64,000 nt of DNA, taken from assembly GCA_000934665.2 (NCBI GenBank), contig KZ537972.1, forward strand, positions 124,001-188,000, in the 5' to 3' direction. Every line of letters starts with the position of its first letter. Position 1 is the first letter of the stretch. A program made the position numbers and the translations under genes. Positions 3,801-46,000 of the stretch are shown here, piece by piece. The notes under the pieces were generated by a model. It saw nothing but the letters and a program-made list of their open reading frames with translations, made no database searches and was not told where the DNA came from. This DNA is from Catajapyx aquilonaris (taxonomy: Eukaryota).

Positions 3801-4749
3801 GGGGTGGACCTACATTTACTTGGGGAAAGGTGACAGGATGAAGCGAGGTCGTTTAATTGCATGAATCAGATATGATTATTATAAGTTATTTGTTGGGGGC
3901 TGACTTCACGGTGTAAATGTTAGAAGGTAATGTCGTTTGCTAGAACGTGGTACTTACCGTGTTGAAAGATAGACATTCGGAGTACAGCGCGACAAAAACA
4001 ATATTGCTTGAGCTTGCCGCCTATGAACATAATCAAAAAAATTGGTTTATCACAAACATGATCATGTTACTTAATTAGGCCTGAAACTAGTGAAAGTCTT
4101 CATTATGGCGGTGGAACTGAAGGCGAATAATAATTACCTGCTTAGGAGGAAAAGCTCTGGGAAAAGTGGTCGTGTGACAGAGGCGGAAAATTTTATTATA
4201 CGTAACAGGGAGGGGGAGGAATGGTTTTAAACCAGGGTCCTAATCTACGCTTGTCTTATTCCGGGGAATAATACAAAAAAAAGGAGGAGAGAACGAGCGC
4301 CAATTCCTGGACTGGAAAGCAGCATTTCTTGCAAATTCCTCGAGAGCAATTTTGGAAGACTGGGGAGGGGGAAACGAGGAGCAGAAAGTTTTAGCCGACC
4401 TGGAAAAAAATAGTGCCGAATTCCCCTAAGCATTTGGAAGAGCAATGACTTTTGTCCAATGGAGACGTCAATTGGAGAAGCAGCCTTTGATTCCAAACTT
4501 TTTTCCACCTTTTGTGTTGCCCCACCCATTTTTTATTTTATTTTTGATGCGACTCCCAAGTTTGATTATGGTACCGTCCAAACTAGTTTTCATTCCAATC
4601 TTGTCATATAATGGAGGACTTGGGTGCAGGATATTGTTTTTATACCTGCTTCCATCTTTTATCAACTACATGTGCAGGTGTCCTGCCGCTTTGAACTCAG
4701 TGGAAATAAATAGTTCAGGATGATTAATGTTGCCAATTTATTATTTCAG

Positions 4750-7700
4750 GTCCGAGAAAGGTTACGGGTGGCGCTCGAACGAGTGGCAACGTTAGAAGAA
4801 GAGTTAACTCAAACCAAAGATGAAGTAAGTGCAAGCGGTTTCCACACACCTTTTTTCCCCCCTGTCACACTTGTAAGATGATACCCATCATGCATGTCGT
4901 TGTTGAGAGCCCAGGGACTGGAGAGGGGAAAAAATTGGCCCTTCTTTGTGCATGTGCAAGCGTTTGATGGATTATCCACGATCCGAAAGGATTGGTGTGG
5001 TTCCGGGAAAAGAGCCTCATCCATCACTGGGGGCCCTGCGCTTATTGGACACATACGAGAGTTCATCCAGGGCATGGCAATCCGTACCAATCCCTGGAAA
5101 GTACTGGCATCTGTAGGTCCAAATTTTGAAAGGAAGGGCACAAAGACCCAAAATAATGTGATAGTTGTACATGTACCATCTAAAACAGCCATGTCGTTTC
5201 CTGTTGAGTTAATAATCCAGGGGGTATTGATTGGCCAACGTGCAATACATGAGAAAGCTGGGGTGGGTTAATAATGCCTCTGGATGCCGAGATGGCAGAA
5301 TTCAAGAGTAGGCTGGTAATCCTGGAGACAATCTGGGAGGTTTATGCCCGCGAGTCTCTGCTCGCTTTGCTTGGATTAACGCAGCTTCATTTTCCCCTCT
5401 GTAGCTTCAGCAGTACAAAATGGGTAAGATTGTCGATGAGAGTCTCAAAGGGAAGCAGAATGGACAGCAGGAAGGTGACCAACAGCAATTGCCTAAGGTT
5501 GGTTCCACTGCTTTTCAAAGGGTGCAAACAATGTGCTAAACCACACTCTTAAATTTTACAGCGTCTTTCTAATGGTTCATTAGAACCTGACTCTGATGTC
5601 CAACGGGTATTAGAACTACAAAACACATTAGAGAAGCAGGTATGAATAGACTTAATGCTTAGCGCTCATTACTTTCAATACAGGTTGAGAGCACTTTTGA
5701 CAACTAGCCATTAGAATTTTTTGGGGGAGCGCATGGGGAAAATGCAAGCAGGGCATAATTAGGGAGACGCCCCTTGAGACCAAAGCATTAAATTTTCCAG
5801 AACGCTGAGTTAAGTGCCTCCCAGCGAAAAGTCGTAGAGTTGTCGCAGAAAATCGGAGAGCTTGAAGATACCTTCTCTAAAGCCCAGAAGGAGCTTGTAA
5901 AAACACAGGAGTCCAACGCAAAGCTGCAGAGGGACCTGAGGGAAAATGTAGCGCAAAAGGAAGACCAGGTCAGGACAAGTCAGAATATTCAAATAAGCAT
6001 TCTGAGCCTTAAATGCAATTGTTGTCATATGTGCAGGAGGAGAGGATAACAACGTTAGAAAAGAGGTACCTGAATGCCCAAAGAGAGTCGACGTCACTTC
6101 ATGACCTTAATGAGAAGCTGGAACAAGAGTTGCAGCACAAGGAGGCCCAGATCAAGGTAGTGTTGCTAAAAGTGTTGATGTAGTGTGAATTTTAACATTT
6201 TGCTCGACTTGCAGTTGCAAGATGACAAGATCCGAGCCATCCAAGAGAAGCTGGAACTCTCGGAGCAAAAGCTGACCCAATATGCAAAGCTTCCTGACAT
6301 CGAGGAAGAACTCAAGCAGCGAATGGAAGCCCTCACTCAGGTAGTAGTTCCTAGGACAGTTTCTCAGAGCCTGCTACTCCGATCGAGGGCATTTCCTAAC
6401 ACAGCTAATTTGCGTCAGGCACAGGAGAGACATGGTACTGCTGAAGACAGAATTCTTAGATTGGAGGCCCAAGTGGAGGAGAAGAACACGGAGCTCCTCA
6501 AGCTCAACCAGAGGTTAAAAATGAACGAGGAGCACAACACCAGGCTATCCAGTACAGTGGACAAGCTCCTCTCAGGTGTGCACCATTGCATTAGATGTTT
6601 TCTTTCAGATTAATATTGTTTACTTTCTTCGATGTAACCTTTGATAACATTTTAAAATTTCATGATCAGAGTCCAATGAGAGGTTGCAAGTGCACCTGAA
6701 GGAGAGGATGCATGCTCTGGAAGAGAAGAACGTGCTTACTCAGGAACTGGATAAGACTAGGAAGGTGCTTGAAGATTCGCAGGGTGATAAGGTAGGAGTG
6801 AAAGAACATTAGAAGAAAAAGTTCGTTTGAAATGAAGGTTGTTAGGAGAAGGGAGAAAAAAAAGTGTGAAACTTGCATTTTCAGCTTAAAGTGAAGAGCA
6901 ATTTGGGGTAACTTGTTGACAAGTAATTTCGCAGAAAAGTCACAGAGTCGTGTTTTTTTTCCTCCACACTTTTCATAGGCAAGGTTAGCTGCGGAATTAG
7001 CGAGATTAACTTTAGACCTAGATGCATTGCGGAGGCAACAATTGGTGCGGTGAGTAGGCAGAGGTGTCATTGCAATCTTTTCTCAAGCATTCGCTTCTCT
7101 TTTCTTTTTTTTTGTTCTCTCCTCCCTCCAACCTTTTTTCATTTCCCTGCTTATGTCGACTCCACACCCTTTCTCTACCCCTCACTCCCCTTTAACAAAC
7201 GCACGGAACAAAAAAAATAAAGGTTGACATTATGAAGGAGCTGAACAAATCCAGGCTTGAGATTGAGAACCTTAAGCGACAAATGCTGCAGCAAGAAATT
7301 GCTTTTAATATTCAACAGACTGAAGCACTCACAAGGTATGGAGTTTTTGTTTCGGGGAGGGAAGGGGAAAGGGGTGTAGTTATTGACTTTCTCTCTTGAG
7401 TTTACTCTCTGCTGAAATTTTTTTTCAATCCTTTTTTTCGGCTGCTTCTTTAATCTTTTGCTAAACTAACCCTGGCACTGTTATGAATATGCTTTCCCCT
7501 GTCCTGCTGGCTTTATCTTTTTTTATGCACTTAACTCTACATTTCTTATTTGTAAAATCTCTAGTGTGTAGTACATTATATTGAATAGTCATGCTCTATT
7601 GTTAATAGTCTCTTACCAGATTATTAACTATATTAACAGTTGCTATTAATGTAATGCAGAGTAAAATGCGTCTTGAACAGACCATGAATTCATTGCTGAA

Positions 7701-10700
7701 TTTTTGTTTGGTCCTAGTGGAGAATTTTTAATGTATTTTTTATTGTAAACAACATGAGCTTGTTTCACGTGAAATTATCCCAGAAGGGGAGCAGCTCCAC
7801 TCTAGACAAGTTTTACTATAGGTGAAATTAAGTATAGCAAATTTTGCAATCTGGTTTTCATGAATGTGAATAATGGTTAACTCTTTTAATTTTTGGGAAT
7901 TTTAGGAGCCTGTCCCCAACGCCAGTTGAGAGCAGTTTTGTACGTAGCTCTAGTCATACGAGCTTCGACACACATTCCCTCTCTCGGAGGCAGAAGGGCA
8001 GGGTTGGGCTGGATGATGACCCAACAAAGGTGAAATTTTTGTTTTTGCTTAGAAAATATGGATAGCAATTTGTACTTACATGGAACTGGAATTACTGAGA
8101 ATCTGTAAATTATGCTTAAATTTGGGTTCTCCTTGTAATTGCTATTAAGATTTTCTGGCATGAAGGGTATTTCTGAAAGGCTTACCTATGTTGGTTTATA
8201 ATTTATTCATTAATTGTTCAGCACAATAATGGCTTGATGACTGCTGAAATACGCTATGACATGTTCATTACATATTTGCTGTTTACAGGTTCTTAATGAG
8301 GAAGACTGGGAGAGTCTTCAACAAGCACATGTCCTTGCCAATGTCCAGCAGGCCTTTGACGTGAGTGATGCAGAGGCTGACGACTCGGAGTCGATCTTCA
8401 GTGCTGTCGACCTGCTCTCACCGACGGGACCTACCGATGCACAGACACTTGCTATGATGTTACAGGAGCAGCTTGATGCTATCAATAATGAGATCAGGTA
8501 ATTAATACTTCTTATGACCTGTGAGGTCCTCACTGATCGTTTTTGGTACATGTCCTATTTTTTTTTAGTTGGTTTTCTTATTGGGCTAGTGTTAATTACT
8601 CAATCTTTCATTAATAATGAGCAAACATTACGATAATAATAATGATAATATTCCAATGTCCCATTTCAATAGTTGCATCTTTTTACATATTGTACAGACT
8701 GATTCAGGAGGAGAAGCAAAGTACAGAAGCCAGGGCAGAAGAGCTGGAGTCTCGTGTAGGAAGCTTGGAACATATGAATCTACTGACCAGAGGGCGCAGT
8801 TTCGAGAGGAGTTCTCCGCCCCTCAGCGGTCGGTCAACTCCAAAGTCACACCACTCACCTCAGAGGGACTACATGCACAAATACCACACTGTAAGTATCT
8901 GAGCTCTTGTGTTGGCATCGTCACTTGTTCACATGCAGGAAGAATTTCCTGGCATTTGGTGCCATTGGGTATGACGCATTGGGTAGCTCTCTGCTCCCGC
9001 AGGGGTTATTTCCAGTCACTTTCTGATTGTTGACTCCTTGTTTGAGTCACTGTTCATTAGTTTGGTAAGAGCTCAGAATTAAGAGAAAGTGTCAAGAGAA
9101 ATTTGCCATCAGTAATTTCTCTTGTATTGACTGCTTACATTACCCTTTTCTTTCCGCTTTAATGGATTAGTTCCAGGTCTGTTGGCAAGCTCACCTCTTT
9201 TTACACTATTCAGTAGTTTAGTGTGGGTAGTTTTTTCTTTTAATTTTTATCTGATAATATATACTCTGTGTAGTTGAAGAATGCTTTGTGGAAAGGGAAA
9301 GAGTATGTTAGTAGGGGACAGAACCTTCTTCAACTATGGTGACCCAAGTTGGAGTCCCATTTGTTAGAGCTCATCTTTTCATACCCTTTCATTTGTATTT
9401 GTTTTGTGTCCCAGTAGTGTACCATTGTGTTTGTTTGGATGAATTGCTGTTTTTCTGTGTTTGCCTTGAAATCTTATGGACGGGATAGAGTAGTGTTTGT
9501 GTGATCACCAACACTGGTCTGATAACATATGGCATGACTTGAATGAAATGGGTTCTTGTACTAGGAGTAGTCACAATACATTTCTCTCCTTTCTTTTTAT
9601 CAGATATACATTACATTACTTCATATGAGATGGAATGATTTTAAATCAGGAAGTGTGACGAATCAATCATTTAGGCATCGTGTAGAAAGTTACTTGCATG
9701 TACAGTTTGTGAAAATTGTTTTTATACACATGTATACTCCACAAGTACATAGCTTCCACAACTTTAACTTTTATGCACATGTAGACGGAAAAATTTTATA
9801 CTTGCACTCTCTGTCCTCCTCAACTCTATACCAGTAGTAGTTCACTTGTCACTCTATCACTCATATGCACATCTGGGCAAAAAAGTTATCTCTTTAAAAA
9901 AAAATTTAAAAAAACACCAAGTCTCTCCAAAATTGGCAGTTGGGAAATTGAGGGTCACACCCCCCCCCCCAGTTAGCGCAAAACAGGAGGAGACTCGCTT
10001 CGTCCACTTGAAAACCCAACACATGCAGGCTTTTAATCGGGTGCTTTCTACCCGCTCCCACCCCCCAACCCCCAACTTTGATGCCTATTCTCCTAGGCAC
10101 CTGCTTCTATGTCACCATCGCAGCTGCACCAGTACGCTTCTCTCAGTCAGGGCCAGCTTTCTGAATCACTGCCTTCTAGTCAGGTTCGTATCCATCTCCT
10201 AAGATATACTAAAAACTAAACAAAAAGCAAATCACCAACCACCATCACACCTTACGATCTTCTGTTGTCCCAATCTGTTTTTGCATTACCAAGATTATTA
10301 GTTACTGTGTGTATGCCATGCAGGCTTCTTAGAGGTTTCATTTTGGGTAGGCACCCTAATCACATGTTTGTTTCAGAGTTGTTATTGAATGAAGTTATAC
10401 TGGTTGATTGGAAGAAGCAAACTTCTAATCCGTGTTGGCAGTAGAAGTATGAGTGAATGTTACCATAGGAAGCAGTGTCACAAAGGGACTGTGAAGCTTT
10501 GCCCTTCATGACTGTTTTTTGTAGTAATTATGCCCAGATGTCTGCTGCAAACTTGAATTAGAAGCACTGTAATGTAATACTTTTTTTTGGTTGAATTTAG
10601 TGGCTGCTATAAAATATGGACAATTGAACATGCCACATTGTGCCTTGCAATTCTGGAAAGTCCCAACACGTAATGTTGACTCTTACTTGCAAGAGTGGTA

Positions 10701-13700
10701 AGGGCAAAAGATTTTAAAACACCATACGTTTATGATTATAAGTCATTGCACTCACAGGACCTGTCAGCATCAATTTTAGTCATTCATTATTACATTGTAA
10801 TTAATATCATACATAGCCATGACTTTAATATGAATGTAGTGGCATTATAGAGTTTCATTACTTGAGAGTTGGGCGTTTACAGCCATGTAAAGTTTAGAGT
10901 GAGGTAGCAGGAAAATTTATGTGCTTCCCGAGCAGTTGAGTCCTTTCATGGGCCCTTAGTTACAGCTGGTACCATCATCATCGGACATTACGAAGGAGGA
11001 CATGAGAGGCCTCAAGCCAGAGAGCAGCCCACCAACACCCAGGTCACTACGATTAGAAAGGGTAGCTCAGGCCCTGGCCCAGAGCTCAGAGGAACTCAGG
11101 AGGTGAGAACAAGGGTTTTTACACACTCAAACTACTACATAATCAATCTTGATATTCATACTCATTTGTAGAGATGAATGCCATTTGGGCATTTTCATTT
11201 GTTTCTTTAATTTTTTTTAAAGATCATGGGTGGAATGTGATTTCAGCGCTTCTTTCGTAGCTTTTTACAGAGGGTTAATTCTAATAAGGCCTTTGAAAAT
11301 GCCACTCATTATTGCGCTTTGCGATGATGCTTTTTGCATAGTTGTGCTTCATTTTTTTTTCCTTAGGTGTGGGTGATTATGATTGGGATTTTTGTCTCTT
11401 CTCCCCTTCCGCCACCCCATTTTCTTTTTTCCCATTTGCGCAGAGCGGCTGTGCAAATTGTACCCTCCACCAGCCAAGCTTATACAATGGGCTCTATCGC
11501 CTCATCTCAGGACCATTTAACCACATTCAGGTTAACTAAATTAACTGTTGTGCTCATTTTAAAATTGCATGTAGTTATTTTTTTAAACCACATCCTTGTT
11601 TGTAGTCTGCTGAATCTCCATTTTTAAATATTGCTTCAATGACAATTGGCTGTGATACATTTTTGGCATGAATTTTACTCACCTTCACGTCTCTCATTTA
11701 ATGACAATGGACTCCTGCAATGCTGACTTGTCACCAGCATTGCCTCTGGCAATATATGAAGGGTGATACGCAACATCTTTTAGAAGTTTGCTTCACACAT
11801 TAGTCTTTGTAATTCCATAGCAGAGAATTGTGATATGGTCTGATTGCATTGCCTTTCCATGTTGCTCAATTCATGTAAGTAAGCCATGTACACACATGTA
11901 CCAAATAAGTGGACTTGCTTTGAATTACCCTTCATGTATTAGCAGATTATTATTATCATTATTGCAGCTGTACTACATTTCAGTGTATTCTGTACCTAGT
12001 TTAGTCTACTTGCACGAAATTATTGAACGTATGTGATGTACTTTCTGTGTTGGCAATGGCAGCACTCAAGCTTACACAAGGTAGACATGCTCGGAAATCA
12101 CTGGTCACGTTCTCTATAATTGATGGTGAGAGGTTTTTTAAAAATGTTTAAACCTATTCCACATCATGTGCACCATCAAAGTCAGATTAATATTGCAACA
12201 AATTTAATCACAAGAACTGATAATTATGTACCCTAGGTTTGCTATGACAATGCCACTGCCACTTTGTTCTATGGTGAGGTGCAATGACCATAGTTATTTA
12301 CAGCACAATATATGTTTGCACCTAACTGTAGAATTGACACATTGTTCACAAATGGTAGTTACAGTGTAGTGCTGGAATTCAGTTAGCAGACTTGACGTGA
12401 ACTAAAATATTGTGGGCCTCCCCGCAAGGGAAGGAACTTTCAAGGCAGAGAACTGATATATACATTGTCTATCCATCGCAGCAATAATGGGCTAGACCTA
12501 TTTGACATAGGGATGTCCGAAAAACTGTAAGTCCCAGAGAATTTAGAAAAAGATTTTAAAAAAGAAACCTAGGACAGTCTGTAGATGTCTAGTTAGCTGA
12601 TAAATGTGGAGATTTTGGGAACTCTTTCTCAAAACCGGGTGTGTTATTTATCGTGGTGTTGTGTTAGGAACGTAGGAAAAAAAACATAGTTGTAATCTAG
12701 CATCACTTGACCATCTTTACCTCCTATCCTGCCAACCCTCTTGATTTTCATTCGTCAGGCCAAGCTTCGTAGACAGTTCCCATGAACCAACACCCTCCCC
12801 TTTGTCCTCTGCCAACAGCAGTCAAGATTCGCTTCACAAGAGCGTCCCTACTTCCAAGAAGAAGGGCATCAAGTCTTCCCTGGGGCGGTTCTTTAGTAAA
12901 AAGGAGAAGGTGAGTTGCTTTCTCACAGATGACAGTCACTCTTCTGTTTCCCACTTGGTGACAGGGAAACGGCTAGTTATACAATCCTGAAAATAGTCTT
13001 CTCTGTCCATGCAGGCAAAAGCGAAGGAAGTGGGGATGATGTCTGGGTCATCCGGTTCAGGGGATATGTCAGGCATGTCGTCCATCTACAGCGACGGGGA
13101 CATCGGAGTATCGGACACCCTGGGTCTGGGTGGTGTCTCCCTGGGCCAAAAAGGCGATTTTGACAGGCGCAAGAAGAAAAAGTGAGCTCCTCCTGAGACA
13201 AAGTTGGTTCTAGTTTAATTTTTCACACTTGTCATTCTAGACACGAGCTTCTTGCCGAAGCGATGAAGGCAGGCACCCCATTTGCCCTGTGGAATGGGCC
13301 GACCATAGTGGCCTGGCTTGAACTATGGGTTGGGATGCCTGCCTGGTACGTGGCAGCATGCAGAGCAAACGTCAAGTCAGGAGCCATCATGAGTGCCCTC
13401 AGCGACACGGAGATCCAGCGGGAGATTGGGATCAGGTGAGTTAATCATAGTGCTTTATCTTAGAGCTTCGGGAGAAAGTGCTGTTTACCACAATTTCTCG
13501 CATTATTCATTTCCAGCAACCCCCTTCATCGGCTGAAGCTCCGCCTGGCAATTCAGGAGATGGTGTCCCTGACCAGCCCCAGTGCACCAAAGACGTCTCG
13601 AACAACCCTGGCATTTGGGGACATGAACCACGAATGGATAGGCAACTACTGGCTACCTTCCCTGGGGCTCCCTCAATACCGAACCACCTTCATGGAGTGC

Positions 13701-14795
13701 CTGGTGGATGCTCGCATGCTGGATCACCTCACCAAGAAGGACCTCAGGGGCCAGCTCAAAATGGTCGACAGCTTCCATAGGTCAGTCGGCTGCTGAAAGG
13801 CCACATTTTGAATTGCATCACATTGACATCTGAGTTAGCATGGAGCCAAAATTCTAAATTATGTGTTTTTTTCCTGTTTAGGACAAGCTTACAATATGGA
13901 ATATCTTGCCTGAAGAGGCTAAACTACGACCGTAAGCAGCTGGAGGAGAGGAGGAAGAGCTGTGAAAATGAACTCAAGGATGTGCTGGTCTGGTCCAATG
14001 ATCAGGTCATCAAGTGGGTCTCCTCCTTAGGGCTTAAGGTGAGAGAATACACACATTTGTACATTGAGCAAAATGATAGATCTGACATGTGTAGGTTGTA
14101 GTAGTTTGACTTAGGCATTCATTTTTGATATACTGCATGTAACATACCTTACATTAGAAGCCAAGCTATTGCACATACTAGTTACAGTAGGCACAACTAA
14201 AGTGTGGAAAACCAAATGATGATCTGACGTCATCGTTTCTTACATTGTTGCTTTTCATTGCTACTGTTTACTCATATTGTTCTGTGAAGGTATTTTCATG
14301 GAAACCTTGATGATGTCAGATTGCTGTTACGTTTTCCGTACTGTACCATACTGCAGCAGTGCTTGATCTAGGGATGGTTAATGTAATCAATTAATTGATA
14401 GTTTCACCAGATGTAGTTTTTGGAAGGACCATTTTTACCTCGAATAATTCATGTAGTGGGACTGTGGTCTGTAATGTTTCATTGGGGAATATATCTTTTT
14501 CAGGAGTATGCCAACAATCTCCTAGAGTCAGGTGTCCATGGTGCCTTGGTAGCCCTGGATGAGAGTTTTGATAACAACAGTATGGCTCTTGCCCTTCAGA
14601 TCCCAATGCAGAATACGCAAGTAAGCACAATTTTAATTTGTCCTCACATGGATTTCTTGCATAAAATTTGCCATGGCATTCATACATTTTGTTTTAACTG
14701 CTCCCCAGGCACGACAGATGCTAGAACACGAGTTCAATAACCTCTTGAATGTGGCAACGGATCGTCGGGTGGAATCGGAGCAGCCCAAGTCTTGA
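4750..14795 (+). CDS. Liprin-alpha: Liprin-alpha / SYD-2 (LAR-interacting presynaptic scaffold), 5'-partial, multi-exon
   Basis: Phase-consistent GT-AG exons: 4750-4824, 5405-5497, 5562-5639, 5801-5968, 6037-6156, 6215-6340, 6419-6575, 6670-6791, [6979-7049 or 7223-7335], 7906-8029, 8289-8497, 8698-8890, 10097-10183, 10966-11102, 11444-11530, 12759-12909, 13015-13181, 13241-13435, 13517-13780, 13882-14038, 14504-14620, 14709-14795 (TGA). With exon 7223-7335 the total is 3027 nt, i.e. 1008 aa plus stop. Hallmark peptides: [131 protein letters not shown]-terminal exons were not found in 1-4749. Confidence 0.96.
4890..5350 (-). mobile_element. Highly decayed CR1/L2-type LINE 3' fragment in a Liprin intron
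   Basis: Broken minus-strand frames give QPTLEFCH (cf. RPxLEYC) and [12 protein letters not shown] (cf. RxNFFSxRVxxxWN). This is motif resemblance only. Confidence 0.35.
6979..7049 (+). CDS. Liprin-alpha: Liprin-alpha alternative exon A ([24 protein letters not shown]), phase 0 to 2
   Basis: Pyrimidine tract plus CATAG acceptor, G|GTGAGT donor, open amphipathic helical frame, same phases as exon 7223-7335. Confidence 0.75.
7223..7335 (+). CDS. Liprin-alpha: Liprin-alpha alternative exon B ([38 protein letters not shown]), phase 0 to 2
   Basis: AAAG acceptor and AAG|GTATGG donor. The peptide resembles the insect Liprin-alpha segment [20 protein letters not shown] and joins in frame to exon 7906. 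Confidence 0.88.
13241..14795 (+). CDS. Liprin-alpha: Liprin-alpha C-terminal triple SAM domain exons
   Basis: SAM1 ([20 protein letters not shown]...[15 protein letters not shown]), SAM2 ([42 protein letters not shown]), SAM3 ([38 protein letters not shown]). Confidence 0.95.
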
Positions 14796-20300: not shown

Positions 20301-22607
20301 AATTCGCTAATTTCTAGTTTTAAAAAGCATATTTTAGGGACGCCAAATATAATGAATAAATTTCAACATAAAATTAATTTGGGACTAATTAGGTAATGTG
20401 ACCATGAGAGAGCACTTTGCAACTAGTATATAAGACTAATTGGAGGATTTGTGTAACGAAACTTTACTCCTCGACATAAGCGCATTACTTGTATAGGAAG
20501 AATATGAGTCACATGTAGCACGACACCAGCTGAGAGAACAAAAGCAAATGAGGTCCAATCAATAGCCTCAAATCACGCTACATGCTAATGGTCTTTAGAG
20601 CATTAAATAATTATTGCCTGCTGTGAAATTTATTGGCGATTAGCGACCTCTTTACAAAGATGGCCGCGTTTTTTTATATAGTCCGCGTGTGTGTTGCATT
20701 ATTCTATAGTAGATTCTATTCTGTTTAGGGTCAGACACGAGCCTCTCTCTTTGAATGTAATGTCCACTCCAAAAAAAGCTAGGGGATGAATAACTTGCAG
20801 TCACGAAATCTCCGCATTTTCTCTCAATTAAGTCCGAAAGGGAAATGGCCCTTTCACGCCCTTTTCTCATTGGATGTCTCCTGCCGCTTCGATCATCCCG
20901 ACATGACAATATCACTCTTTGTGATTTCATTAAATATGAAGCTCGTGTCTATTGATTGGTGTGCCGCTTCATAAATCGCATGTGTAATGTAAGTGGAATT
21001 TGACCCATCGTACATTATCGACGCATTAAGATGACACTACGTCACGCACTTTTCTTCTATTTTTAAAAAAATGTGTCGCAAATGACTTGAACGCACGAAT
21101 AATTAGCCAGTCAAAAATTGTTGGGTAATGACTCCAAATTAAAGCACACGATGAGTACTCTTTCCATACGAGTAGGCAATGTGTAATCAGCAAAAAGGGT
21201 CGAAAAAAACTATTGATCTACATAAATTAGTGGGCGATCGGTTAATCTAAGCGCCCGTGTAATTTTTTTTTCAGGTGGGGATTATAGACGCGTTACACAT
21301 GAACGGTTAATATGTCCACAAACTAGTCTGTTGGAACTTGATGACTATCGGGTATTATTGGCAGCAAGTACGCCACATATACGTCATTACTGCAGATATT
21401 ACTGTAGGCCTGAGAAGAATTTGGAGCCAAAACATCTGGTCCCCAGAGGATGAATATATCAACGGGGGGGGGGGGGGGGGGNGGCATGGAAGAGAAAAAA
21501 ACTCCACGAAAACAAAACAGATAACGGTAGGACTCACGCCATTATTGAGTAGTACTCAATAATGCAGCGGGATAGGTTGAAATCCCCATTACTGTGGCAT
21601 TAGACTGTAATAAGTTTTGTTGGGGGAAAATAATGAGTTAGTCACTAACACCCGTTTTTTCCAATCTTGTCAACAATTAACAATTGCCCCCATTATTATC
21701 AATATTTTTTGGAGGTATTCAAACTGTCCTTGCCGATGTCATTACTCCGTATTCAACACCTGCCATATGTCCATTGCCAATTTGTGTTCATAAAAATTGG
21801 CAAGGTCACACCTAGAGATCCTTGTGCGGACAGGTTTGCGAATAGCACGTTCCCTTTTTTTTTGCAATATTCCGCAGCATCTTGCCCCCTGCGGTCACCT
21901 TGTGGTCAATAGGCTAGGAACAGGCCGGACAGATGTGCTGTGGGAAAAAAAAAGTGCAGCTGTGCATAGATATAACGTAAGTCCAGGAAAAGGCAGTTCT
22001 ATGATAGACCCCCCAGGGGGGTGATCAATATGGTCCGAGGGGTAAAAGGTCAGGAAACAAAAGGATGCATTACCTTAGGGGGGGAATCTGCTCAAAAAGG
22101 GAGGCCTATCCACCCACTGTTGCGGACATGGAAAAAGAGCAGTTCGTCATAACTAACTTGCTCAGACTACCGAGAGTAATTATGGGCAAAACCGTTAACA
22201 TTCTTTTATATAGTAACTACCTAATTAAGCTAACTCGCCGTGTGAAAAAAACTTACCCCCCCCCCCCCNTGTTTTTTGTAAGCAGCTCGAATATTGATGA
22301 CGTTGGACACGAGGGGGCCTTCTTCTCCCCCCCACCCCCACCTTTTTTGGGGTGACTATTGAATGGGTCACTCTATTGAGTTGGGAACGCGTGCCCCTTT
22401 TTAGGCTTCCCGTTTTTTTTCCATAAAAAGGGAAAAAAATATTGGCCATATTATGCCATGGTGGGTACAGGGTGTGCCAAAAACTTAATATTTCCATGGA
22501 GGGTGTAGGTGAATGTGTCGGTTCCCTTTTTGAGCCTCCCCCCCCCCCTCCCCACCCCGGGTTTGCTATTGGGGGGAGACTAGTGGGGGAGAAATGGGCG
22601 GTGCGAC

Positions 22608-22933: not shown

Positions 22934-24724
22934 ATGATGTCCCGGTCATTCTTGGTGGACTCACTCATTACCCGGAAGCCCTCGGACACCCCGTCGTCCG
23001 AAGCATCACCATCCTTTAACCTCGGGGTCACCTCCTATGCCAGTGCTGTCACCTCGCAGCACCCACCTCCGCATCACCCTGCCATTCCGCATTGCTACCC
23101 CCGGAAGCATCCGGACCTCCTTAGCCTGTACAGCTGCCCCTGGTGTCTGCCCCTGGGTCCTGCCTCCGCCCCGCTTCTGCCCCCGCTCACATCCACATAC
23201 GCTCCTCTCATCAGGCCCGTACCAGTCACCTCCGCACCTCTGGCCTCGCTCCTGAGGTCATACGCACCCCAACACCCAACCCCAACCCCTGCCGCATCAC
23301 CTGCCCTACACAGGTCAGGGGTCAAGGAAGCACCTGGACATGACGAAAAGCAAGGTATAGTATAGATCTATAATATGTTGTTGCCAAACCCTCATCTGAA
23401 ATATTAAGACAAAATATCAGATTCAAAGCAATTGGGCCATTGTCTCGAGGAAGCCAGCAAGTGTATGCGTGTAACATCCGACTGCACACGTTAATCACAT
23501 CATCAGCACTCGCTGTATTTAATTCCCCGGACACGAACCCTAGAGTCAAAGGCATCGCAAATCCATATCTTATAGGACCGGATAAATGATAGATATGTTT
23601 GCACCCAGTCCTTCCTTTTGTTGTCCATTCTTGGGTAATGGAATCGTCCAGCGGAACTTTTTCCATTCGGTCTGATGAGATGTAATATTTATTAGAGCCA
23701 TGTTCGCGTGTGGGGACGTGAAGGTGAGATTAGTGTGTTTATCAAGGGCTTTTGAGAGCAAACTCATCGATTCCAGATTCTGTACTGATCTCAAAATGCT
23801 AGACCCTGAATAATAAGCAATTACGTGGTGGCCTGGACTAATAGAGTAAATGACCACGGGGGGTCTCTTGAAATTTTTATGACCTTTGTTCCACAACATG
23901 GTGACCCTCAGGCGAAAGTTTCTCAACTGGTAATTACACCGATCGCGTTTCTGATCCGGAAACCGCGTTGACGACTCTATGGTAATGGCTAACCGGATAC
24001 AATTTCTGGCATTTACGCACCTGAACATTGTAGTACTCGACAGGTACGTTATTACTCGGGAGTAAATAATTTCTAGGCGCGGCACATGCCGCGGTTTGCT
24101 GTAATCAGATGTTCAGTCCCGTGGGAAAATTTTGGCACAGGTAATGCTATTCTGCGAAACGCGATACAAATCACCTCGTATGAAGATATATTCAGGGCGC
24201 GATTATACATTTTAGCCATGCATGGTGTGTGCCGCACGAAAGAATTGTCAATTTTGCGAAGGCTGCTTTTGGAAATTGATGACCTATGCGCACTTGTTGA
24301 CTACAAATATTTACTAACAACAAATATATTAATAAATATATTTACCTGTTCTTCCATGTTAGGTCCGAAGCGTCGTCCGTCTGAGGAAGAAGATGGTGGA
24401 AGTTGCAGCAGTAACAGCTCTAAGAGGATCCGTACTGCGTTTACCAGTACTCAACTGTTGGAACTGGAAAGAGAATTTGCGTGCAACATGTACCTGTCGA
24501 GATTGAGGCGGATAGAGATCGCTACGTATCTCAACTTGTCCGAGAAGCAGGTCAAGATCTGGTTCCAGAACAGAAGGGTTAAGTACAAGAAGGAGGACTC
24601 CGGGAGTGCAGCGGACAAGGACAGTAAGTGCCGGTGCCTCAGGACGTGTGCGCCGAGAAGCGTCTCTTCGCCTGCTCAGGTCGAAGGTCAAGGGACGCAT
24701 AAAGACGACGGATGCGGGTCGTAG
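22934..24724 (+). CDS. Gsx: ParaHox Gsx / intermediate neuroblasts defective (ind) homeobox protein, two coding exons
   Basis: Exon 1 is 22934/22937-23354 and starts (M)[11 protein letters not shown], the Gsx N-terminal SNAG/eh1-like motif. A phase-1 intron runs 23355-24362 (GT...TTAG). Exon 2 is 24363-24724 with homeodomain [59 protein letters not shown] and a downstream CRCLRTC motif. Confidence 0.96.
24419..24598 (+). other. Gsx: Homeobox (60-aa Gsx-class homeodomain)
   Basis: Diagnostic Gsx residues [29 protein letters not shown] and [10 protein letters not shown]. Confidence 0.97.
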
Positions 24725-43000: not shown

Positions 43001-46000
43001 ATCGACGACACTCGCTTTTTTTTTTGTTCCTATTTGACAATCGGACGGACAAATGGCGGATACAATCGATCAATTCTCGGTGCGGCAATTAACTGACGTT
43101 TAATCTGGACGCGTCCTATCCCTTGTTTGATTGAAATTGGACACGTTTGCAGTCAATCAGCGTACTTTTGTGTGTAACTCGATTACGTTTGTTTTGCGCC
43201 AAAAAGTGTTTGCTCGAACCGATTCGAACGTGTGAAAATCTCGTCTCCGAAAAGTTCCGGTTCAATTTTTTTTAACGTTGAAGTCAATAGATTTGTCATT
43301 TACTATGATCATAGAGTAGTTCGGACACCTTTGAACGAAAATTGGCATATTTATAACTTTCGGGCACTTTCTGGGTCAATATTGACATGTATGGAGGACC
43401 GATTAACCCTGATATGTCTGAATTATTTTTTGAATGTTTTTCAAATATTTTGAAATAGTTCAATTGTCAAAGATTTTGAAATATTTCAATTGTCAAATAT
43501 TTTCAAATATTTCAATTTGTCAAATATTTTCAAATATTTCAATTTGTCAAATATTTTCAAATATTTCCATTGTCAAATTTGTATTTTTTATTTTTCAAAT
43601 ATTTTAATTGTCAAATTTGTATTTTTTCATTTTTCAAATATTTCAATTGTCAAATACGTTCAAATATTTCAATTGTCAAATATTTTCAAATATTTCAATT
43701 GTCAAATTGGTATTTTTTATTTTTCAAATTTTTCAATTGTCAAATTGGTATTTTTTATTTTTCAAATAGTTTTAAATATTTCAAATTTTAAATATTTTAT
43801 TTCTATGAATATATGAAGAACTAAAAAAAAGACGTCCTAGATATAGGACGCTAGGCATATCTGGGTTAAATGGCGACATTTAAACGTGACAATTAATCGT
43901 GTCTGTCTAATACCCTTTGACTTACACAGCTGCTGGCCCTTCGTGACCCCGGTTCTGACCCGGGTCTTGAAGGGCAGTAGGCCAGGTTGAGGTAGGGGCC
44001 ATAAGTGGGCACGGTCAGCATCGTTTGACTCGGTTGTGGGGTCAGGTTGGTGGTAGACGTCGCGAAACCCGCCGACGTCGGGTCTCCCACTGAACCTGTA
44101 ATTAAATATTAGCCTCTAATTAGCCCTCTTGCATAACAAAATTCCTTAACGAGCCAGAAGCCCTGAAGGTAGTTGTGGGAACAGCCGGGAGATGGAGGAA
44201 TATTGGCTTTTTCGCGCGCCAAAAATGTGCGGATTTGGCTTGAGGGTAGCCACCTGCAGTTACATGCCGCAAGCACGTTGTCAGCACAATGAGTTCACAC
44301 TGTTGTCGTTTGGTCGTTGTCGTTCTTGTCATGTAGAGGTACCAGGTCAAGTTGGGTTCGCAACAAACCAACGACAACGACACTCATGTGAACCTCTCAA
44401 TGACTTGTGTCGTTACATTACGTTCACCTCTGAATCCAATTAGAGTCGAACTTGAGGTTTCAGAGTGACATAACGTGGGCTGTACCGGATGTAGCCAAAG
44501 TATATTTAGATTCGTATTGATCAGAGAATCACGGAGTACCGGCGTGGTCACTCCAATTGCCCTTAGACCGCTTCGAAATTGCTCTTTCATCCTGGCCACG
44601 TTGCCAATTTGCATGTAAATGCAAGCAGTGATTTTTATAGTTAATTTCTTGTGTTTCTCCCAATGGGGTAAGTAAAATAAATAAATAAATAAATAAATTT
44701 TTGTACAGAATCATCACAAATGTAAGCTTAATTATTTTTAATTTAACCCTTACAATTTTGTTATTTTTTTATTTAATTGCAGTCACCTACTAATTCGGTT
44801 TGGAGCACCCTGTAGGTTCAATTCCACACCAGCTTATCCGGAATAGCTAACTGTTCCAATAATTTGGTCGAAAGCACTCGACACGGTTTCCTTGATTTAT
44901 TTATCACCCAGTTCTGGTTAGGACAGTCTTTGGAGGAGAATACAGGGTTGGAACTACCTCCACTTTGCTAAAAAAAAAAAACTATCTGAGGACATTCGGA
45001 AAAATCTGACAATGGGTGTTCCGTGGCATGAAATCGTGTGGTGTGGGTGTTTGCTGGTGACCTGCTGGCCGAGGAAAGTGGTTGGCAAAAGATCGATCCA
45101 GGGGTTGTGAGTGGATGGTGCTTGGATGGTGAGGGGGNGGGGGGGGGGGGGGGGGGGGACGCTCAGGCAATCAGGTCCACCCACCCCTTCTCTCCTTACC
45201 TTCCTTTCTTATCAGAATCTCTGTTTTTTTCCCGGGGAGGATCCGGGCACACCATTTTATCGGGGAGGAACATCCGGTTTTTGATGATACACATTACTAG
45301 GAATAGTGATCGATCAATTGGTGATATTATCAAGGAACAATGGGAGGGAAGCACTTGGCGTATGAAGATAAAAGGATTCGGGTGCTGATTGGATGGGCTG
45401 TTGACATCGGGCATTGTTGAGGTCGACAGTTCGATAACCAAAAATTTATATTGTCTAAACACTGATTAGGTGGATCACAATACACACATAATTTGATAGT
45501 TATGTCATACATTTTCCGAATTTTTAAAATGCTAGTTGTCCACCTCGTATAGAGTCCCTCGCTCCAGGGGTCAGGTTGGGGTAGATAAGGTTGGAAGAAG
45601 GGCGCGGAGTCATGACAGTATGAGGAGGATTGGAGAGGATGGAACTAATTAGAGACCGGGGGAGGGGGGGGGGTGGAACTGGTATATCGTATTGAAATTT
45701 ACCAGATAGAGCAACACCCTGCATCGTAAACTGGAGCATGTAAATAATAGATAGAGCGTTGTAGGTCATGAAGCTTGAACGTAAGCTGTCCGTATAGGTA
45801 TGCAAAATGGAGGCGGAGAGAATTCATCGCTTGCTAATGAGCCGCTCGGTTCAGGCAAAATTCATCAGAGGCAAGTGGGCAGGTGAGATTTAACGAGTGG
45901 AAAGAAAATTGTCCGGAGCTCTCCGGTGTCGGAGAGTTGAATACCCTTCAACCAAATTATGTGTTATCTAGAATCTCCCACCATAATGGAAATGGAGGCT

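Follow-up and report, generated by a model that had tools for sequence, protein, structure and literature searches.

We predict, with a probability that we put at roughly 0.6, that two neighbouring exons of the liprin-α gene in the window (the whole stretch of 64,000 nucleotides of Catajapyx aquilonaris DNA analysed here), named A and B below, form a lineage-restricted, tandem-duplicated pair of mutually exclusive exons that is coupled through the reading frame. The gene is a pancrustacean one, probably of a hexapod. Exon B would be the ancestral, canonical exon and exon A an old copy of it restricted to this lineage, predicted to encode the first three heptads only, as a leucine-zipper-like helix of 24 residues without the (D/E)ALTR motif, and splicing would put exactly one of the two into a productive mRNA. 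The exons, their constitutive neighbours and the intronic elements discussed below are collected in Table 1.

Table 1. Features of the liprin-α locus, with positions counted from the first nucleotide of the window.
Feature	Position	Strand	Remarks
Liprin-α gene	about 4750..14792	+	5' end outside this stretch; stop after ...ESEQPKS
Constitutive upstream exon	6670..6791	+	last 40 residues of CC2; ends in phase 0 (...EDSQGDK)
P1, purine-rich arm upstream of exon A	6827..6865	+	complementary to Y1; inverted repeat I1; putative function
Exon A	6979..7049	+	71 nt, phase 0 to 2; candidate alternative exon, predicted 24-residue leucine-heptad helix
Y1, pyrimidine-rich arm in the A-B intron	7103..7142	+	complementary to P1
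Y2, pyrimidine-rich arm in the A-B intron	7154..7191	+	complementary to P2; inverted repeats I6 and I9
Exon B	7223..7335	+	113 nt, phase 0 to 2; canonical pancrustacean post-CC2 segment, weak A-rich acceptor
P2, G/A-rich arm, 18 nt downstream of the exon B donor	7353..7388	+	complementary to Y2
Constitutive downstream exon	7906..8029	+	continues SLSPTP...; 64-86% identity to insect proteins

By its domain order, with CC2 followed by C-terminal SAM domains, and its collinearity with known proteins, the gene is a liprin-α (PPFIA / SYD-2 / Dliprin-α). Frames of the window match the Pfam models PF25526 (E-values of 2.6e-33, 3.1e-16 and 9.9e-15) and SAM_1 (E-value of 3.2e-14), and the tblastn matches of a cockroach protein (P0012) run collinearly from 4747 to 14792 at about 70% identity overall, with the gene entering the window at about residue 128 of that protein; the part used for this assignment does not extend to the N-terminal CC1. 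The initial annotation had placed the exon pair in a liprin-α coiled-coil gene, just downstream of the conserved coiled coil, and both placements are borne out. The constitutive upstream exon, 88-90% identical to insect proteins, corresponds to positions 211-250 of the 250 positions of PF25526, the model of liprin-α CC2 (E-value of 3.1e-16), and since the model ends with this exon, the variable segment begins exactly at the end of CC2 so defined. In passages of a review, liprin-α is described as central to the organisation of presynaptic active zones, with a CC2 that binds ELKS and RIM (PMC8044993). Among the other long frames, no Pfam family was found, one homeodomain excepted; the minus-strand frames over the region, which match no family, were set aside as antisense artefacts.

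Exons A and B are adjacent, internal, located between one pair of constitutive exons, equal in phase, free of in-frame stops and bordered by GT-AG sites, and their coordinates, lengths and phases, like those of the flanking exons, are as first annotated. Exon A codes for 23 residues plus two bases (acceptor ending in cttttcatAG, donor GTGAGT) and exon B for 37 residues plus two bases (acceptor ending in aaataaAG, donor GTATGG), a length difference of 42 nt (14 codons), and the Arg codon split at the end of A or B is completed in both cases by the first base of the constitutive downstream exon. The intron harbouring exon A measures 431 nt and that between A and B 173 nt. The open frame of exon A, 24 codons bounded by a TAG in the acceptor and a TGA in the donor, is uninformative by itself.

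Because the exons are 71 and 113 nt long, joint inclusion and joint skipping each give an early stop. In a scripted frame test, the joins of the two constitutive exons through A and through B were both open, while the test construct with both exons ran into a stop at its codon 67, four codons past the start of exon B, and the one with neither at its codon 47, in agreement with the earlier statement that exactly one exon keeps the frame and both or neither shifts it. The reading frame thus rules out productive transcripts with both exons or with neither, and exclusivity would be enforced at least by this route, the aberrant transcripts presumably being subject to nonsense-mediated decay. An in-frame product containing both exons, by way of a nearby alternative acceptor or donor, is ruled out by the bases around 7048-7055 and 7219-7225. 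As for other mechanisms of exclusivity, steric hindrance is unlikely with 173 nt between the exons, and an incompatibility of U2 and U12 sites was set aside, as both donors resemble what we take to be the U2-type consensus.

Exon B is of the insect/pancrustacean type, in which 11 residues are followed by [DE]ALTR. It shows 81-86% identity to insect segments, and 72 of 128 foreign proteins fit the same pattern, in agreement with the initial match of exon B to the insect-type sequence; another 48 of the 128 have other forms, which we attribute to intron read-through, to the short forms of chelicerates or to gaps in gene models. Within the 38-residue stretch after CC2, half of the columns (19/38) are invariant in seven sequences from insects and a shrimp. 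Judging from these alignments, exon B would add 38 residues to the end of CC2, including a near-invariant pancrustacean motif of 14 residues followed by (D/E)ALTR. This stretch is covered by no solved structure, and no function is assigned to it in the passages of reviews that we consulted.

The peptide of exon A is related to this same segment. With a profile HMM built from 24 foreign arthropod segments, and from no sequence of the window, we searched the six-frame translation of the window, which yields 3,294 stop-free peptides 12 or more residues long; exon B came first (E-value of 6.4e-25) and the frame of exon A (6979-7050) second (E-value of 0.03, 12.0 bits), followed by a match at an E-value of 0.2, with the other liprin coiled-coil exons at 15 or worse. 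Aligned in register and without gaps, the first 22 residues of A and B reach a BLOSUM62 score of 32 with 7 identities, a score attained by 3 of 100,000 residue shuffles and, among the 43,362 stop-free 22-mers of the window, only by B itself and by A starting exactly at 6979. The best heptad register is identical in the two exons, with leucine, isoleucine, valine or methionine at 5 of 7 a/d positions in each, in line with the initial description of two helical segments with similar heptads. At the nucleotide level, 24 of 66 positions are identical in register and a MAFFT alignment was uninformative; by codon position, the identities are 8/22, 11/22 and 5/22, which puts third positions at the random level. 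These comparisons support homology of exon A to the post-CC2 segment and a shared heptad register, the similarity being modest (7/22 identities, 12 bits), and suggest an old duplication with constraint at the protein level. An origin of exon A as an exonised repeat was rejected, as the intron that bears it has no second copy in the window.

No counterpart of exon A was found among the foreign liprin-α proteins examined, in searches made with the flanking exons rather than with the exon A peptide itself as protein query. A set of 93 sequences, made up of isoforms and members of 10 clusters, contains 74 of the B type, 8 of the chelicerate type and 11 without the region, and among 33 further proteins these numbers are 21 for B and 12 without the region, with no A-type sequence in either set; when 75 distinct segments were ranked against exon A, the best in-register score, 45, came from the B type. 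An intron occupies the A/B position in 10 of 17 metagenome loci (about 65-625 nt long in the 9 measured), and a profile search found no A-like frame in any of the 17, these orthologous introns included. Over the 5,609 peptides of these loci, no match other than B scored above 11.3 bits; that match (in L017) is a palindromic artefact, and the next one has 10.1 bits.

The initial annotation had likened exon A to the short vertebrate PPFIA segment. This stands in so far as each of the six vertebrate segments compared shares more residues with exon A than with exon B (4-11 versus 2-5 identities of 22), with the best match, 11/22, in fish liprin-α-3; outside α-3, the resemblance is modest. Exon A also shares 8/22 residues with a bivalve segment and 7/22 with a scorpion segment, and its likeness to vertebrate sequences may reflect convergent evolution towards a leucine heptad. 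In length and heptad pattern it resembles the short post-CC2 helix of vertebrate liprin-α-1/2/3 and of sea urchin, bivalve, rotifer, mite, scorpion and spider proteins, but in those animals the short helix is the sole version seen, whereas here it adjoins the long pancrustacean one.

Splice-site strength was scored with position weight matrices from the liprin-α gene itself, resting on 15 donors and 15 acceptors. The acceptor of exon A, at 7.0 bits, exceeds all 15 real acceptors scored with leave-one-out (maximum 6.6), a value equalled by 15 of 707 other AG sites, and its donor reaches 7.6 bits, with 7 of 571 other GT sites equal or better. When AG...GT pairs 40-200 nt apart were required to have both sites at least as strong as those of exon A, all the others in the gene overlapped known coding exons. 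The acceptor of exon B scores -3.5 bits, less than any of the 15 constitutive acceptors, and at its counterpart in foreign loci an ordinary pyrimidine tract is present in 8 of 9, which suggests that its weakness is derived. With a strong acceptor on A and a derived, weak one on B, the choice between them is probably regulated.

Each exon is also bracketed by a purine-rich and a pyrimidine-rich intronic arm, which could loop it out. The P1:Y1 duplex around exon A has a predicted energy of -31.4 kcal/mol, reached by 14 of 1,000 shuffles of the arms, and the Y2:P2 duplex around exon B one of -39.5 kcal/mol, reached by 1 of 1,000, figures to be read with the arms having been picked after the repeats were seen and with purine and pyrimidine tracts pairing easily. 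Cross-pairings are weaker, at -20.6 kcal/mol for P1 (versus -31.4 with Y1) and -25.1 kcal/mol for P2 (versus -39.5 with Y2). For the best 30-nt duplex between flanking introns, exons B and A rank first and second among the 20 internal exons of the gene (-34.3 and -25.8 kcal/mol), the other 18 ranging from -9.0 to -23.7 kcal/mol; the corresponding values for exon B at 9 foreign loci are -15.7 to -25.5 kcal/mol. The fold of 6792-7420 as a whole is no better than that of shuffled sequences (z of -0.55; 6 of 20 shuffles as good), and no Rfam family was found in 6000-9000. In the minimum-energy fold the two stems occur together, a state that would skip both exons. Y2 sits just upstream of the likely branch region of exon B, and P2 is also made of G-runs.

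It is hardly credible that exon A is a chance interval, an intronic AG...GT stretch open and leucine-rich by accident. Its frame is short, about one third of random 23-codon frames are open, and coiled-coil-like peptides resemble one another; against this stand its second rank with a foreign profile that leaves the other coiled-coil exons of the gene far behind, the rarity of its in-register score among shuffles and its uniqueness among the 22-mers of the window, on the right strand, in the right intron and phase, and between top-tier splice sites. If exon A were instead a silent remnant of a former exon duplication, not meaningfully spliced and with its similarity and sites as mere leftovers, its absence from all comparators and its lost nucleotide similarity to B would be accounted for. 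We regard this as improbable, since a neutral copy whose third positions are saturated would be expected to have lost frame, heptads and splice sites as well, whereas exon A has the best acceptor in the gene and a consensus donor, a pair that, within a 431-nt intron, the spliceosome would find hard to ignore.

The strength of these sites would also suit a poison cassette, spliced together with a constitutive exon B, that triggers nonsense-mediated decay and lowers liprin-α output, its peptide never being made. Exon lengths that are not multiples of three are typical of poison-exon switches; the stop shortly after the A-B junction and the lack of an A-type protein among the foreign liprin-α proteins examined point the same way. 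That stop arises only when B is also included, A alone being productive. A poison exon, however, needs neither an open frame nor likeness to its neighbour, while exon A is open in the productive frame and resembles both B and foreign segments at the protein level, in register and not at third codon positions. Moreover, the strong stem around exon B and the derived weakness of its acceptor suggest that B is skipped at times, which would be productive only if A takes its place. We consider a poison cassette unlikely. The poison and the mutually exclusive readings are compatible, and transcripts with both exons may arise as by-products.

Returning to the mutually exclusive pair, one can go further and suppose a private splice switch at the end of CC2 in one insect-like lineage, which replaces the (D/E)ALTR extension by a short, vertebrate-like leucine zipper, is set by the two exon-looping stems (a "double loop-out") and yields active-zone scaffolds that differ between cells in oligomer stability or partner binding. 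We put this forward tentatively, as a rather doubtful extension. If exclusive use of A and B is real, a natural isoform that removes the (D/E)ALTR motif yet keeps the helix would be a ready-made experiment on the role of this motif, and a synaptic scaffold gene would join the arthropod genes diversified by exon duplication.

In arthropods, mutually exclusive splicing under the control of docking sites and selectors is described for Dscam1, srp and 14-3-3xi (PMC4691838), and competing intronic RNA pairings are treated in parts of Ivanov and Pervouchine, 2018 (PMC6071210) and, for human ATE1, of a preprint (bioRxiv 10.1101/2020.06.04.134791). As in the docking/selector systems, the complementary arms at A and B adjoin the variable exons and pair more strongly than sequences around constitutive exons of the same gene. 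Unlike in those systems, there are two stems with distinct partners rather than a single docking site with competing selectors, and they would loop an exon out instead of activating it; with the stems separate and coexisting in the minimum-energy fold, and the cross-pairings weaker, a docking-site/selector architecture was rejected for A and B.

Vertebrate liprin-α genes are alternatively spliced as well (Zurner and Schoch, 2009, as cited in passages of PMC8044993 and PMC13311821). These cases, as far as the passages describe them, concern the same gene family and affect elements with which the scaffold binds its partners; the passages mention no choice between exons immediately after CC2. A literature search, beyond whose reach the 2009 paper itself lay, returned no report of mutually exclusive exons in liprin-α, and we regard A and B as a well-supported prediction, from genomic sequence, rather than a discovery.

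Clusters of tandem-duplicated, mutually exclusive exons have been catalogued for human and Drosophila (passages of Hatje et al., 2017, PMC5740500; Kassiopeia, PMC3923563). The prediction scheme set out in the former asks for a common frame, similar sequences, GT-AG sites and lengths no more than 60 nt apart, and A and B share a frame, are similar, differ by 42 nt and have GT-AG borders. According to the same source, in 377 of the clusters (60%) the lengths are not divisible by three, so that joint inclusion is non-functional. Unlike the catalogued clusters, the A/B pair is predicted from sequence, differs in helix length by 14 codons and seemingly occurs in one lineage; like them, it consists of neighbours between the same constitutive exons, with the same phase and homologous peptides.

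The exon pair lies in a liprin-α gene that aligns in order with the cockroach protein P0012 over about 20 exons (identity about 70%), whose frames match the Pfam families PF25526 (liprin-α CC2) and SAM_1, and which is, by identity, about equally distant from Orthoptera, Blattodea and Hemiptera. Since its match runs to the last position of the PF25526 model, the upstream constitutive exon encodes the very end of CC2. Between it and the next constitutive exon, the initial annotation had described two exons, A and B, of which exactly one must be included to keep frame, and every detail (coordinates, phases and frame logic) was confirmed; in scripted splicing with the flanking exons, the frame is open with A alone or with B alone, A and B together lead to a stop four codons into exon B, and omission of both to a stop seven codons into the downstream exon. 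Exon B and the downstream exon add up to 237 nt, so that their joint skipping keeps frame, and in one gene model from Nesidiocoris (P0059) the EWEKL... exon follows straight on from the CC2 exon; a third in-frame isoform without this whole segment is thus possible, or else the P0059 model is wrong. Elsewhere, the window carries a second gene unrelated to the exon pair, with a homeodomain (PF00046, E 2.4e-22) in a 215-codon open frame (24077-24724, + strand), an AT-rich tandem repeat array (43438-43804) with nested periods of 10, 26, 38, 91 and 129 nt, and four N bases, at least one of them within 22008-22352, at about 22.2-22.3 kb (an X in the frame-2 translation).

Features of the liprin-α gene around exons A and B (window positions)
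Feature	Position	Strand	Remarks
Liprin-α gene	about 4750-14792	+	collinear alignment of P0012
Upstream exon	6670-6791	+	PF25526 positions 211-250 of 250; phase 0 end
P1	6827-6865	+	purine-rich, upstream of A; pairs with Y1
Exon A	6979-7049 (71 nt)	+	AG/GT borders; phase 0 to phase 2
Y1	7103-7142	+	pyrimidine-rich, downstream of A; pairs with P1
Y2	7154-7191	+	pyrimidine-rich, upstream of B; pairs with P2
Exon B	7223-7335 (113 nt)	+	AG/GT borders; phase 0 to phase 2
P2	7353-7388	+	G/A-rich, just past B donor; pairs with Y2
Downstream exon	7906-8029	+	first base is third base of split codon

Exon B is the canonical pancrustacean segment, in line with the insect-type match proposed in the initial annotation. 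Among 128 foreign proteins collected with both flanking exons as queries and examined for the post-CC2 segment, 72 show ...[25 protein letters not shown](D/E)ALTR following the CC2 exon, and 8 lack the upstream motif. We take the remaining 48 to be genomic frames that continue into the intron, a chelicerate version of 31-32 residues (scorpion, spiders), the shrimp variant P0060 and two odd gene models. In seven B-pattern segments, 19 of the 38 columns are invariant. The Pfam CC2 domain of P0012 stops at residue 461, which coincides exactly with the exon boundary; residues 420-500 lie outside every solved structure, the closest entries spanning 245-346 and 592-623. Because the representative protein P0343 reads through an apparent intron within this segment, after ...KRQVLQQ, the segment may be split in some species into a first part of about exon A's length and a second with the [14 protein letters not shown] motif. 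Some insect proteins, and not others, also have a few extra residues, IRTLGEQ, after the downstream exon and before EWEK... (P0012, P0013; after ...DDPTK), which suggests a micro-exon or an alternative site.

We put the probability that exon A is a productive alternative exon at roughly 0.6. Its open frame is uninformative, as it has only 24 codons and is closed by the acceptor TAG and a TGA inside the donor, but three comparisons make it very improbable that the exon is fortuitous. A profile HMM built from 24 foreign arthropod segments and run on the 3,294 stop-free six-frame peptides of the window (≥12 residues) places the exon A frame second (E 0.03, 12.0 bits) after exon B (E 6.4e-25), followed by a third match at E 0.2, with the other coiled-coil exons of the gene at E 15 or worse; in 5,609 peptides from 17 foreign loci it gives no comparable non-B match, the best scores being 11.3 bits, in a palindromic artefact of locus L017, and 10.1 bits. 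Over their first 22 residues, aligned from the first codon without gaps, A and B score 32 (BLOSUM62, 7 identities), a value attained by 3 in 100,000 shuffles of A and, among 43,362 stop-free window 22-mers, only by B itself and by the one that begins at 6979. When the numbering is continued from the upstream exon, A and B have the same best heptad register, with L/I/V/M at five of seven core positions in each.

The splice signals were scored with matrices trained on 15 donors and 15 acceptors of the same gene, real sites being left out in turn. Exon A's donor (GCG/GTGAGT, 7.6 bits) falls within the range of real donors (1.4 to 11.2) and is equalled by 7 of 571 other GT sites, and its acceptor (7.0 bits) exceeds all real acceptors (maximum 6.6) and is equalled by 15 of 707 other AG sites; all remaining AG..GT pairs 40-200 nt apart with both sites as good overlap known coding exons. 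The acceptor of exon B, at -3.5 bits, lies below all real ones and is matched by 419 of the 707 AG sites; an A-rich run precedes it, with pyrimidines farther upstream, and eight of nine foreign loci have an ordinary pyrimidine tract there. A weak, derived acceptor on the conserved exon and a strong one on its neighbouring copy would have the look of regulated choice. It seems unlikely that A is instead a poison exon, used only together with B, the combination that runs into a stop. We likewise doubt that it is a silent relic. In-register nucleotide identity between A and B is 8/22, 11/22 and 5/22 at codon positions 1, 2 and 3, and MAFFT found no meaningful nucleotide alignment; with similarity gone at this level, the duplication is old, and the protein-level pattern that persists in this one genome would be the trace expected of purifying selection acting on a helix.

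An inverted-repeat search with folding yielded two predicted stems around the exons. P1:Y1 (-31.4 kcal/mol) and Y2:P2 (-39.5 kcal/mol) were matched in 14 and 1 of 1,000 arm shuffles, respectively, for arms picked after the fact and composed of purine and pyrimidine tracts, which pair readily; cross-pairings of P1 and P2 are weaker (-20.6 and -25.1 kcal/mol). An exon-by-exon comparison is a fairer control: for the best 30-nt duplex between flanking introns, B (-34.3) and A (-25.8) lead the 20 internal exons, the other 18 ranging from -9.0 to -23.7, and nine foreign loci give -15.7 to -25.5 around exon B. For the region as a whole, the predicted fold is no more stable than those of shuffled sequences (z -0.55). 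We rejected a docking-site/selector scheme, because both stems form side by side in the minimum-energy fold and would skip both exons. Beside the donor, P2 also forms a series of G-runs, and such runs could act through proteins instead of pairing.

Beyond the 128 proteins above, no A-like segment was found among 93 isoforms and cluster members from ten clusters (locust, dung beetle, scorpion, termite, wasp, stick insect, stink bug, cricket, lanternfly and lacewing; 74 of B type, 8 of chelicerate type, 11 without the region), nor among 33 further members (21 B, 12 without the region), and when 75 distinct post-CC2 segments, with 50%-identity representatives from across animals among them, were scored in register against A, the highest value, 45, came from a B type. 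With the exon B alignment as query, metagenome contigs gave 17 loci: in ten, an intron separates B from the upstream exon (about 65-625 nt in the nine measured), four are intronless there and three lack the upstream exon on the contig; a profile search found no A-like frame in any. Four loci (L001, L002, L003 and L013) have the CC2 exon and exon B contiguous, three of them with the downstream exon too, and may be intron-poor genomes or transcript-derived contigs; in L017 the exon B homologue occurs on both strands (1231-1439) as a palindrome and the downstream exon lies on the minus one, probably an assembly artefact. The best protein matches in the collections compared reach 90% identity for the upstream and 86% for the downstream exon, and none is identical, which places the species and its close relatives outside those collections. 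As no comparator has it, exon A would be a gain restricted to its lineage, or else an old exon with repeated losses.

The other animals compared have a single short helix after CC2. The likeness of exon A to the vertebrate segment, proposed in the initial annotation, was borne out, A being closer than B to all six vertebrate sequences (B: 2-5 of 22 identities in register), with 11/22 to fish liprin-α-3, 7 to a hamster α-3-like, 6 to an α-2-like and 4-5 to α-1 forms, beside 8 to a bivalve and 7 to a scorpion. By substitution score, however, A is no closer to short types (mean 8.8 over 46) than to pancrustacean B types (37.3 over 29), and convergence on a leucine heptad would explain the likeness as well as ancestry.

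Taken together, the sequence data accord with a mutually exclusive exon pair, tandem-duplicated and coupled by frame, and use of exon A, if true, would remove a highly conserved, unexplained motif beside CC2. Our literature search, which did not include the primary vertebrate liprin-α splicing paper, found no report of such a choice in liprin-α, and the sections consulted in two reviews mention its splicing only for the SAM-region insert and the C-terminal motif (PMC8044993; PMC13311821). The pair agrees with published prediction criteria for mutually exclusive exons, as far as the excerpted source sets them out (PMC5740500); exon pairs of this kind are well known, and the candidate case in liprin-α would be new.
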